From assembly GCF_004010195.1 (NCBI RefSeq), contig NC_057718.1, forward strand, positions 104,654,619 through 104,718,618: 64,000 nucleotides of DNA, given 5' to 3'. This document shows, in pieces, positions 3,355 through 58,872 of the stretch; the first letter of the stretch is position 1; each line of letters starts with the position of its first letter. The position numbers and the translations under genes are program-made. The notes below the pieces were generated by a model, which was not told the origin of the DNA, searched no databases, and saw only the letters and a program-made list of their open reading frames with translations. Origin of the DNA: Chiloscyllium plagiosum (taxonomy: Eukaryota).

Positions 3355-4311
3355 AGAATTGAATTGAATTGAATTTATTATCACGTGTACCGAGACACAG
3401 TGAAAAGCTTTATCTTCTGAGCAATAGGCAGATCACAGAGTTAAGTAACATAGATACTTTCCTCATTCCTGAAGAAGGGCTTATGCCCGAAACGTCGATT
3501 CTCCTGTTCCTTGGATGCTGCCTGACCTGCTGCGCTTTTCCAGCAACACATTTTCAGCTAAGTAACATAGATAGTAAATAATAGGTAAACAGCAGCAAAA
3601 ACAAAAACACAGGTACAGGTGAATGTTAAGAGTTTGTGAGTCCATTCAGTATTCTAACAACAGTCGGGTAGAAACAGTTTCGAAACCGGCTGGTGCATGT
3701 GTTCAGGCTTCTGTACCTTCTCCCTGATGGTAGTGGTTGTAGAAAAACATTGCCAGGGTGGGATGGATCTTTGAGAATGCTGGCGGCCTTTCCTTGATAT
3801 CAGGCCTGGTAGATGGATTCTATAGATGGGAGGTTGGCCTTTGTGATTGTCCGGGCCGAGTTCACCACTCTCTGTAACCGCCTCTGATCTTGAATGGTAC
3901 AGTTGCCCTACCAGGTAGTGATACATCCAGACAGAATGCTCTCAACGGTACACCTATAAAAGTTGGCGAGGGTATTCACCGTCATGCCAAATCTCCCCAG
4001 CTGCCTGAGGAAGAAAAGACATTGTTGGGCCTTTGTAACCAGTGCGTCCACATGAAGAGCCCAAGAAAGCTTGTTGTGGATGACCACTCCCAGGAGCTTG
4101 ACACTCTCCACTCGTCCCACCTCTGTGCTGTTAATGTGTAGGGGGGCATGAGTAACATCCTGCCGAAAGACAATAATGAGTTCCTTAGTTTTGCCGGCGT
4201 TGAGAGCTTGGTTGTTCTTAGTGCACCATTTTTCCAGGTCTTCCACATCCCATCTGTAAACTGTTTCATCGCCATCTGAGATTCGACTGACTATGGTGGT
4301 GTCATCAGCAA
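3355..4311 (-). mobile_element. Rex-Babar-like LINE 3' fragment (end of RT plus 3'UTR, (ATTCA)n tail)
   Basis: WCTKNNQALNAGKTKELI...KAQQCLFFLRQL...NFYRCTVESILSGCITTW; the same tail recurs at ~51563-51610. Confidence 0.75.
3457..3558 (+). mobile_element. Penelope-derived hammerhead-containing mini-insertion, 15-bp TSD
   Basis: TSD TAAGTAACATAGATA at 3442-3456 and 3559-3573; core CTGAAGA-A-GGGC-TTAT-GCCC-GAAAC-GTC at 3469-3496. Confidence 0.8.
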
Positions 4312-4312
4312 A

Positions 4313-4602
4313 CTAGAGGACATAGGCTAGGGTGACAGGAGAAAGATTTGAAAGAGACCTAAGGGGCAACTTTTTCATGCAGAGGATGGTACATGTATGG
4401 AATGAGCTGCCAGAGGAAGTGGTGGAGGCTAGTAAAATTGCAACATTTAAAAGGCATCTGGATGGGTGTATGAATAGGAAGGGTTTAGACGGATATGGGC
4501 CAAGTGCTGGCAAATTGGACTAGATTAATTTAGGACATCCAATCAGCATGAGTGAATTGGACCAAAGTGTCTGTTTCTGTTTTGTACAATTCTATGACTC
4601 TA
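4313..4602 (+). mobile_element. CR1 3' fragment
   Basis: [29 protein letters not shown] followed by tail CTATGACT. Confidence 0.85.
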
Positions 4603-4619
4603 TAACTGTATGGTCCCGT

Positions 4620-5400
4620 CCACTTCAGTCTTTACTCCCGTGTTTTCCAATGTGTTTCTTCAAACCGCAACTTTTTTTGTCATTAAAGTGTCCATACTCC
4701 AAATTCCATACCTCTGGATTTTATTTCCACTGGACTTCACAGGGACCTCTCTGTTTCTCAGTGTAGTCATCAGTGTCCTGCAGGTTTATTATGCTCTTGC
4801 CTCCAATGTTTACCCTGGGAGTACATCAAGTCCTTGCTCAGTGTAAAGACTGAACAATTGTGGTTACAGAACACACCCTTGTGGCACTCCTGTCTTCACT
4901 CCTTTAACATACCTGATTGTCCTCCTGGTCCCTGATTGTCACTCGTTGGTGCCAGTATAGGCTTTGTGTAAATCTCACAGCTTCATTGTCAATGTTACAT
5001 ATCAGCAATACTTCTGTTAACGTGTTAGTGATCAAATGCATTTTCATTGTCTATTTGTAAATGGTTTTGTTTACAAATAAATGTTTATTGAAGATTGTTC
5101 TCAGGTTGATATTTTTTCTCTCTCTCAATCCTACTCCAGGTCTAAATCAAGTCCATCAGTTTGCTTCAAATATAATTAGACTCCGGCCATGCAGTCTCAG
5201 GAATTCTACATTCCTTTTCTCAGTAGGAATGACTTATAATACAGGTGTGTGTTTAATGAGAAGGACATGACACCTAATCTAAACACGTTAATAATTGTGA
5301 GATTTCTCATTACATTCATTTTCCATTTCCTCATTGCACTAATGACCAAGTTTACTTAAAAATCCCATGCATTCCATCCAATTATTTCTTCCTACAATTG
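4620..5400 (-). mobile_element. Highly decayed RTE-clade LINE RT fragment
   Basis: Minus strand ~4902-4834 reads GVKTGVPQGCVL*PQLFSLYTEQ, preceded by RFTQSLYWHQRVTIR; boundaries approximate. Confidence 0.5.
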
Positions 5401-5894
5401 GTTATATTTTGTCATGTGACTTGTTTGAGCAAAATTAAAACAAGAAGTTTAATACTGTTACATGGTAACTCAAAAAGTCATACATCTGTAACAACTCAAC
5501 ATATCTTTGTCTAATTCTTTCTCCAATTATCATTGTTAAACTTCAAGGACAAATTTTCACAATGCAAGAACAAATGCAGTCCAGTAAAATCTTGTTCATT
5601 AAACCTAGATATGTGTCTTCCATGTGCACTAAATAAAACACCATCAACCAGTTCATTGTGCCTCTCCTGTCCTCTCTCACACACAGCTGTACGTGATGAT
5701 AATTGTGTGCAAACCTTCTCTTCATACACACCTTGTAATAAAAATGCACACGTGTGTAAACACAAGCACATGTTTCGGAGCAAACTCTGCCCTTGCACTA
5801 AGCAGAATAAGAGATTTATATTTCTCCCTACCCTAATGTTATAAATTAGTTTTGTTCTCTCAGCTACCCCACTGACAGGACAACAGGATAATGA

Positions 5895-57352: not shown

Positions 57353-58212
57353 AGAGTCATAGAGATGTACAGCATGGAAACAGACCCTTCGGTCCAACCT
57401 GTCCATGCCGACCAGATATCCCAACCCAATCTAGTCCCACATGCCAGCATCGGCCCATAGCCCTCCAAACCCTTCCTATTCATATACCCATCCAAATGCC
57501 TCTTAAATGTTGCAATTGTACCAGACTCCACCACATCCTCTCGCAGTTCATTCCATACACGTACCACCCTCTATGTGAAAAGGTTGCGCCTTAGGTCTCT
57601 TTTATATCTTTCTCCTCTCGCCCTAAATCTGTGCCCTCTAGTTCTGGACTCCCTGACCCCAGGGAAAAGACTTTGCCTAATGACCCAATCCATGCCCCTC
57701 ATAATTTTGTAAACCTATATAAGGTCACCCCTCAGCCTCCAACGCTCCAAGGAAAACAGCCCCAGTCTGTTCAGCCTCTCCTGTAGCTTAAATCCTCCGA
57801 CCCTGGCAACATCCTTGTAAATCTTTTCTGAACGCTTTCAAATTTCACAACATCTTTCTGATAGGAAGGAGACCAGAATTGCATGCAATATTCCAACAAT
57901 GTCCTATACAGCCGCAACATGACCTCCCAACTCCTGTACTCAATACTCTGACCAATAAAGGAAAGCATACCAAACACCTTCTTCACTATCCTATCTACCT
58001 GCGACTCCACTTTCAAGGAGCTATGAACCTGCACTCCAAGGTCTCTTTGTTCAGCTACACTCCCTCGGACCTTACCATTAAGTGTATAAGTCCTGCTAAG
58101 ATTTGTTTTCCCAAAATGCAGAACCTCGCATTTATCTGAATTAAACTCCATCTGCCACTTCTCAGCCCACTGGCCCATCTGGTCCAGATCCTGTTGTAAT
58201 CTGAGGTAACCC
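57353..58212 (-). mobile_element. Young CR1 ORF2 3' fragment
   Basis: WAEKWQMEFNSDKCEVLHFG...EQRDLGV...QFWSPSYQKDV...VRVWNEL. Confidence 0.92.
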
Positions 58213-58286
58213 TCTTCGTCTATCTTTTGGGTCTCTCTGAAAACAGAACATGGTTTCCTCGCCTGTCAAAGTCCTTGATAAATGTA

Positions 58287-58512
58287 AAAAACAAAAGTAT
58301 TGCGGATGCTGCAAATCAGAAACAAAAACAGCAATTACAGGACTGGAAAAGCTCAGCAAGACTGGCAGCATCTATGGAGAGAAAGCAGAGTTAACATGTT
58401 GAGTCCAATTTCTGACAAAGGGTCACTGGATCCAAAACTTTAACTCTGCTTTCTCTCCATTGAAGCTGCCAGACCTGCTGAGCTTTTCCAGCAATTGCTG
58501 TTTGTGTCTTTG
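58287..58512. mobile_element. Decayed palindromic Penelope terminal-repeat insertion
   Basis: Inverted arms CTGGAAAAGCTCAGCA.../...TGCTGAGCTTTTCCAG; core degenerate. Confidence 0.65.
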
Positions 58513-58779
58513 ATCAATATCCCCGTCAGAATCCCCACCCCCAATCTGTCAGGTTGTCCCTGATTGGTATAAACTCCTTGTTCACACATCCTGCAACAAT
58601 CTGCTCTAGCCTCTCTGAGCCTAGTCTGGATTACAGGCACTGTGTTCCATGTCTAATCTCAATAAGATTCTACACAATGTATTTGCTTTTTCGTCCCGTC
58701 CCCTGAATGATACGTCCTAGCGGTTTGTCTATTTGCTTCCCCACGCTCAACAAATGAGGCATTGAGAAAGTAGATCGGA

Positions 58780-58872
58780 ATGAAGAGCGTGGCGATGGAA
58801 AAGCACAGCAGGTCAGGCAGCATCCGAGCAGCAGGAGATTGGACATTTCGGGTATAAGCCCCTTCATCAGGA
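58780..58872 (-). mobile_element. Hammerhead-type terminal-repeat fragment
   Basis: Minus strand CTGATGA-AG-GGGC-TTAT-ACCC-GAAAT-GTC. Confidence 0.65.

Follow-up and report, generated by a model that had tools for sequence, protein, structure and literature searches.

Short inserts carrying a minimal hammerhead ribozyme motif recur in a 64,000-nt stretch of Chiloscyllium plagiosum DNA (assembly GCF_004010195.1, contig NC_057718.1, positions 104,654,619 to 104,718,618 of the forward strand), hereafter the window, and in the 3.56-Gb genome of this vertebrate. These inserts are almost certainly pieces of the pseudo-long terminal repeat (pLTR) of Penelope-like elements (PLEs). We further propose, with a probability of roughly 0.65, that they are stubs, i.e., run-off complementary DNAs (cDNAs) extended from the two internal priming sites of the PLE to the capped 5′ end of an uncleaved messenger RNA (mRNA). 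The unit is numbered from the A at window position 3465 (+1), which places the predicted hammerhead cut after +32, and the family labels A–E are our own.

Inserts and their origin in Penelope-like elements

A preliminary description of the window had reported six inserts with clean target site duplications (TSDs), and all six were recovered, with exact TSDs of 15, 14, 14, 14, 17, and 16 bp (Table 1); a TSD of at least 14 bp was reached by chance in 0.9% of 1,874 random coordinate pairs. The inserts are real, but three of them are not simple insertions: 9325–9533 and 21249–21466 are head-to-head pairs, and the insert at 20046 opens with an inverted tail piece. Four additional fragments listed there (8743, 9140, 25232, and 58842) also exist, and the related segments in the window amount to 23 in total. 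Over all the TSD-flanked sites studied, the 27 TSDs measure 11–17 bp with 61% A+T, and an uninterrupted paralog of the target site was found for 7 of the 27 sites, after removal of one self-match (locus L099). For instance, the target site of insert 3457 has a paralog without the insert in locus L044, at 91% identity. The copies at 3457, 9416, and 54056, described as nearly identical and as keeping their CpGs, show 3–5 differences in 89 nt (among 3469, 9414, and 54144) and hold 4 CpG each; in this respect the description was right, family A being young.

The unit is the pLTR of endonuclease-bearing (GIY-YIG) PLEs, hereafter EN+ PLEs. Most of the 30 loci fetched with the peptide from the end of an open reading frame (ORF) in the window contain the ORF end, the 3′ untranslated region (UTR), and the unit in this order, the family C unit lying about 190–260 nt after the stop codon; the longer loci reach the GIY-YIG motif. 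The family A unit follows a GIY-YIG end in L053, L056, L092, and L093, with a match to Pfam PF01541 (E-value 2.4e-5), and in L096, L097, L099, and L100 the unit runs past its tail into an ORF start, with the ATG near +167. In L091, the N-terminal region and the endonuclease are joined across an N gap. Several hallmarks of EN+ PLEs are found here: a pLTR both at the ORF end and before the ORF start in partial tandems, a C-terminal GIY-YIG endonuclease upstream of the pLTR, and a TSD at the true insertion together with a tail of 30–40 nt on one end and an inverted 5′ pLTR. The translations also contain a CX4CxxC linker, within the CX2-5CxxC pattern that Neptune and Nematis carry between reverse transcriptase and endonuclease (PMC8557442), which as a sequence signature points to these clades. 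Published EN+ PLE insertions, whose copies carry a 30–40-nt tail often on one end only, share with ours the two 3′ ends 34 nt apart, the inverted arms, the partial tandems, the TSDs, and the C-terminal GIY-YIG domain with its CX2-5CxxC linker (PMC3846280, PMC8557442). Unlike those, most insertions here are without any ORF and have 5′ ends clustered at one base.

That the inserts form a separate non-coding, retrozyme-like unit, as had been suggested, was not supported, because the identical sequence joins a GIY-YIG ORF end upstream and an ORF start codon downstream. The other suggestion, extreme 5′ truncation, is the closer one but is incomplete, since the 5′ ends pile up at one position. The genome-wide abundance of family A was taken from exact-pattern counts, for which the reversed-pattern controls gave 0: there are 113,557 matches for +71 to +89, 80,164 for +5 to +23, and 20,889 for −33 to −15, while a 28-mer across the junction between tail and 5′ UTR has 192 exact matches. 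One family has >110,000 3′ ends in the genome.

Some single loci deserve mention. L099 (G000:C1:10789000-10789800) and L100 are miniature partial tandems that fuse the ORF start to the 3′ UTR, and L099 holds two hammerheads 279 nt apart within one TSD, which makes it a natural dimer construct. In L107–L110 (G000:C1:3888201 and 3891885) a stub is present in two copies with identical flanks, 3.7 kb from each other, the result of a local duplication that followed insertion. Three “long ORFs” proved to be N gaps, and a couple of tail matches 3.5 kb apart on contig C6 turned out to be two mini-copies rather than a complete element.

Ends of the copies and competing explanations

End statistics were drawn from 60 pattern-selected loci at the start of contig C1, the window, other fetched loci, and sequencing runs. 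Among 30 copies selected through an anchor sequence that lies 3′ of the predicted cut (L007 is uncounted, as it has no such anchor, its plus arm ending near +36), 18 start at −2 to +6 and two at +35 (bin +31 to +35, around the predicted cut); seven run upstream of +1, namely six counted as such plus L056, where the call is an N-gap artefact. In the genome-wide counts the per-base loss rises from 0.005 between +71 and +5 to 0.036 between +5 and −33, a 7-fold increase across +1, and the step remains when the exact-match rates of the three count words in sampled copies (55/67, 46/64, and 14/22) are considered. Junctions in the sequencing runs were mapped on locus L053, with six ends shown per run and many smaller ends beyond these. 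The top 5′ loose end was exactly +1, with mixed flanks, in all three informative runs (178 RNA reads; 287 and 163 contigs), and the predicted cut site was not among the six ends shown per run; a fourth run, X22, contributed no mapped read.

In families A–D, +1 is an A in an initiator-like context (the initiator consensus is YYANWYY) and also the first base of stem I of the hammerhead. A TTTATCT box is present near −32 in families A, C, and D. As a splice acceptor the box was rejected, given that an AG lies at −21/−22 in A and C but is moved or absent in D while TTTATCT stays, and that the flanks at +1 are mixed and do not represent one upstream exon; the box may still serve as one in a second role. 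Transcription from inside the pLTR, by an internal promoter, has been described for Penelope of D. virilis (PMC2377424).

The base preceding +1 is often an extra G. Among the first 100 listed of 13,255 copies with a base other than C at −1, a hand count gave 58 G, 29 A, and 13 T (58/100 vs. 29% G expected, p = 2.5e-9), and the seven listed head-to-tail joints onto +1 with intervening letters all end in G. Ten plus-strand loci with the G were fetched, two known inverted ones being skipped, and two duplicates left nine independent loci; the G is untemplated in four of these. A copied cap is the accepted reading of such an extra G in L1 and SVA (PMC2912911), and terminal addition of a G by the enzyme would likewise imply the end of a template.

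At the other side, copies end at about +95 (short) or about +129 (long), 34 nt apart. All 18 inverted inserts pair one short with one long arm, an outcome with a chance probability of at most 0.5^18 (~4e-6); 19 opposite-strand pairs had been listed, and the long-long “pair” 9096/9474 was removed because it joins two separate insertions. The inverted centres vary between inserts. The strict long-short rule fits the priming of one target strand at each site. A comparable reaction is known for PAc (Poseidon of Anolis carolinensis; Frangieh et al., 2024, PMC11167929), whose protein nicks and extends both target strands, starts reverse transcription from two internal sites bounding the tail, and uses uncleaved RNA as template; there, too, no RNA-sequencing ends lie at the hammerhead cut. 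The two systems differ in layout. In PAc the ORF begins within the hammerhead and contains the priming sites; here, the ATG lies about 38 nt past the tail, which makes the unit 5′ UTR sequence, and the linker resembles that of Neptune/Nematis. Head-to-tail joints from +95 to +1, i.e., stub dimers, were also seen in DNA contigs (L053:1444-1538, runs X15 and X17).

The mechanism we propose is as follows. The inserts would be by-products of autonomous GIY-YIG PLEs with a Neptune/Nematis-type linker, whose transcription would start at +1, making the hammerhead the first 36 nt of the capped mRNA. Priming at the first pLTR-ORF junction would copy only 95–130 nt and then run off the RNA end, the cap being sometimes copied as the extra G. 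Each target strand would prime at one site and, when both cDNAs survive, a head-to-head insert with one short and one long arm would result; longer copies may arise when priming takes place at a pLTR further downstream, in tandem or circular RNA. Although the hammerhead would be under selection in master elements, the templates of the stubs were uncleaved at that hammerhead, since the priming sites lie 3′ of the cut and the stubs keep +1 to +32. Judging by PAc, whose activity needs the ORF-start segment that the stubs lack, the stubs are probably dead on arrival.

Several observations weigh against this mechanism. For the RNA 5′ end the sole informative RNA run is an indirect one, of single-cell poly(A) data for a related organism, in which intronic copies may account for the junction reads. 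The junctions spread over −2 to +6, palindromic centres blur one or two of the 5′ calls, and the C1 sample covers the first 1.8 Mb of one contig. In four of the nine independent loci the extra G is otherwise explained (last TSD base in three, inverted arm in one), and one is undecided. No intact full-length element was recovered among the fetched loci, the long frames being N gaps, and the middle of the family A element falls in N gaps; reverse transcriptase (RT) was seen only as a broken RT-like frame upstream of a family C endonuclease in L063, with no Pfam match and, as a lead, an Atlas score of 0.93 to clusters with RVT_1 on 28–30% of their members. As to the ribozyme, stem I of family A has only three of four pairs, and computed folding makes a hammerhead dimer feasible but far from the minimum, 5–15 kcal/mol above the best computed dimer.

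The clustering at +1 could also reflect ordinary 5′ truncation with a strong RT stop, the template extending upstream and the enzyme stalling or being displaced at +1 by a bound protein or a long-range structure. We consider this unlikely, even though about a quarter of the copies continue upstream, the 5′ ends scatter over ~8 nt, and PLE copies are typically 5′-truncated (PMC8557442): stem I should already be open after copying of +33 to +36, so a structural stop at its 5′ base would be unexpected, and the extra G, the initiator-like context, and the conserved −32 box are left unexplained. Still less probable is a non-autonomous family resembling short interspersed elements (SINEs), in which short masters with an internal promoter would be mobilised in trans by the PLE protein. 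The very high copy number and the preferred start would suit such a family, as would the internal promoter of D. virilis Penelope (PMC2377424) and the existence of small internally deleted tandems (L099, L100), but the stub sequence is that of the ORF-linked pLTR of the same family, the inverted centres vary, the deletion junctions of L028, L099, and L100 are all different, and the stubs stop before the ORF-start segment required by PAc (PMC11167929).

Very improbable, in our opinion, is a retrozyme-like cycle in which tandem units would cleave themselves through hammerhead dimers, form circles, and return to the genome as non-coding elements. Like the non-LTR retrozymes of animals, the inserts are short, non-coding, furnished with a type-I hammerhead, and tied to PLE pLTRs (PMC7229834; bioRxiv 10.64898/2026.07.22.740005), from which animal retrozymes are reported to derive (bioRxiv 10.64898/2026.07.22.740005); the +95 to +1 joints (10 contigs in one run) and the paired hammerheads of L099 also agree with such a cycle. 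However, those retrozymes are head-to-tail tandems of ~150–450 bp expressed as circles (PMC7229834; bioRxiv 10.64898/2026.07.22.740005), whereas here most inserts are dispersed, single or head-to-head, and join ORF sequence whenever longer, tandems being rare exceptions. Moreover, the 5′ ends lie at +1, not at +33, and the hammerhead is minimal here and canonical in coral retrozymes (PMC7229834). Run-off from a capped mRNA end may also be part of a larger scheme, which we advance only tentatively and think rather doubtful: stubs would record two states of the PLE RNA template, the linear capped mRNA being a dead end that yields a 95–130-nt stub, and an RNA cleaved by a hammerhead dimer between its two pLTRs and ligated into a circle being copied, from the same priming, across +33/+32 into a whole element. 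The ribozyme would then be a switch, its first base pair set by the transcription start, and the frequency of its use would be reflected in the ratio of stubs to long copies (~3 to 1 here).

The hammerhead motif

Families A–E have in common the core, an additional A following position 9, a stem II of 4 bp, and the palindrome ACGT where stem III would be, and at least five PLE families in the host genome carry the motif. Stem I begins at +1 in all families; it is perfect in B, C, and E, and a U-U mismatch is kept in A and D. In an alignment of 10 natural copies from the five families, 93% of the cells in stems I and II are paired, as compared with 10–51% in slid controls, and three of the eight stem I/II pairs show a compensatory change on both sides, a count that kinship inflates. 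Within the limits of such an alignment, the conservation of pairing supports selection on the hammerhead in master elements; activity is not thereby proven.

A PLE-type minimal hammerhead inserted by the PLE machinery, as first proposed, is borne out, and the cuts predicted after 3496 and 20111 agree with the hammerhead layout. The minimal type-I layout attributed to the copies is correct, except that the 5895 copy is without the first core C and one pair of stem II is broken in the 9416 arm. As for the covariation claimed for stem II, only GGGC/GCCC vs. GGGT/ACCC stands, while GCCT and ACCT are more readily explained by CpG decay of old copies. The proposed check against Rfam gave no hammerhead family among 14 matches at E-values up to 5, as expected for a motif without helix III; the microRNA matches of Rfam in the window are the palindromic inserts.

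The motif closely resembles the minimal hammerhead ribozymes (min-HHRs) of metazoan PLE pLTRs (Cervera and de la Peña, 2014, PMC4209133), which are also of type I, with a 4-bp helix I, an extra nucleotide between 9 and 10.1, G10.1-C11.1, a palindromic 15.2–16.2, and no helix III; several covarying families occur per genome, and the motifs are mostly single, dispersed, and linked to truncated PLEs, with pairs on opposite strands. On the other hand, the copy number is far higher here (44,714 exact 33-mers of one family vs. ~9,000 Xenopus motifs), helix II has 4 bp here, and in the available part of that report the 5′ junctions are unmapped and no cartilaginous fish is named. Monomers of these min-HHRs were inactive and dimers weak (PMC4209133), and cleavage here would probably occur only as a dimer or with the help of a protein. 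In a search of mostly open-access literature we found no paper mapping the 5′ ends of PLE stubs to a transcription start or a cap G, and none on PLE hammerheads of sharks, although the supplements of PMC4209133 or of bioRxiv 10.64898/2026.07.22.740005 (one cartilaginous fish included) may list such motifs.

Other features of the window and significance

The coordinates of the inserts and of related segments are collected in Table 1.

Table 1. PLE-derived features of the window (“.” marks head-to-head inserts with arms on both strands).
Position	Strand	Feature
3442..3573	+	Family A stub, insert 3457-3558; unit −8 to +95, short 3′ end; 15-bp TSD
3465..3500	+	Minimal type-I hammerhead, +1 to +36: stem I 5′ strand from +1 (3465), then the core and a 4-bp stem II, with the palindrome ACGT serving as stem III; cut predicted after 3496; U-U mismatch in family A stem I
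5881..5990	+	Family A stub with 14-bp TSD, insert 5895-5976; first C of the core missing
9311..9547	.	Family A head-to-head insert 9325-9533 with 14-bp TSD; the short arm (9325-9410) is on the minus strand, the long arm with the tail (9411-9533) on the plus strand
20032..20194	+	Family B insert 20046-20180 with 14-bp TSD; opens with an inverted tail piece, the unit itself extending from about +1 (20078) to the short end; all 4 bp of stem I paired; cut predicted after 20111
21232..21483	.	CpG-decayed family D head-to-head insert 21249-21466 with 17-bp TSD; the long arm is on the minus strand, the short one on the plus strand
54040..54163	-	Family A stub, insert 54056-54147; start at −2, short end; 16-bp TSD
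8735..8860	+	Decayed unit of family C; no TSD found
9039..9164	-	Family B unit, long end
58302..58514	.	Decayed head-to-head pair of family B
58786..58872	-	Decayed A/D-like unit
59626..59761	-	Family B unit, about +1 to long end
31210..31340	-	B-like unit, decayed
25675-25749, 35486-35572, 36049-36166, 53914-54020	-	Further decayed B-like pieces
25477..25674	-	C-terminal end of PLE GIY-YIG ORF; relatives reach the GIY-YIG motif
25164..25476	-	3′ UTR/pLTR of the ORF at 25477..25674, with the family C hammerhead unit at its end, the core of which (25255) lies 221 nt after the stop
1599..2440	-	Second, older PLE remnant: broken GIY-YIG C-terminal frames 1969-2440, decayed pLTR 3′ part 1599-1687

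The frames of the older PLE remnant (minus strand) adjoin a tRNA-like SINE, and its decayed pLTR end lies ~280 nt further on. A stretch at 14382–14606, considered as a PLE frame, has no Pfam match. The first coding exon of an SLC1A-type transporter gene lies at 43681–44214 on the minus strand (Pfam SDF, E-value 3.9e-23), and many of the inserts may be in or near this gene. The window also contains a tandem array with a 29-bp period (27852–28846), a SINE copy with an internal 51-bp tandem amplification (59884–60342), and broken RT frames of long interspersed elements at 3908–4312, 11472–12210, 26014–26739, and 57771–58265, with an RVT_1 match for 11475–11924.

The PLE class, the minimal hammerhead motif, the tails, and the inverted arms are already published; the new part is a testable mechanistic extension of the known class of PLE hammerheads. 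PLE stubs account for a very abundant repeat of this genome. In annotation they should not be mistaken for retrozymes or SINEs. Should +1 be the capped start, the stubs would account for the surplus of solo hammerheads long noted in animal genomes. They would also amount to tens of thousands of in vivo records of how PLEs insert, a poorly understood reaction (two-site twin priming, uncleaved template, cap run-off), and the role of the PLE hammerhead would become a directly testable question.

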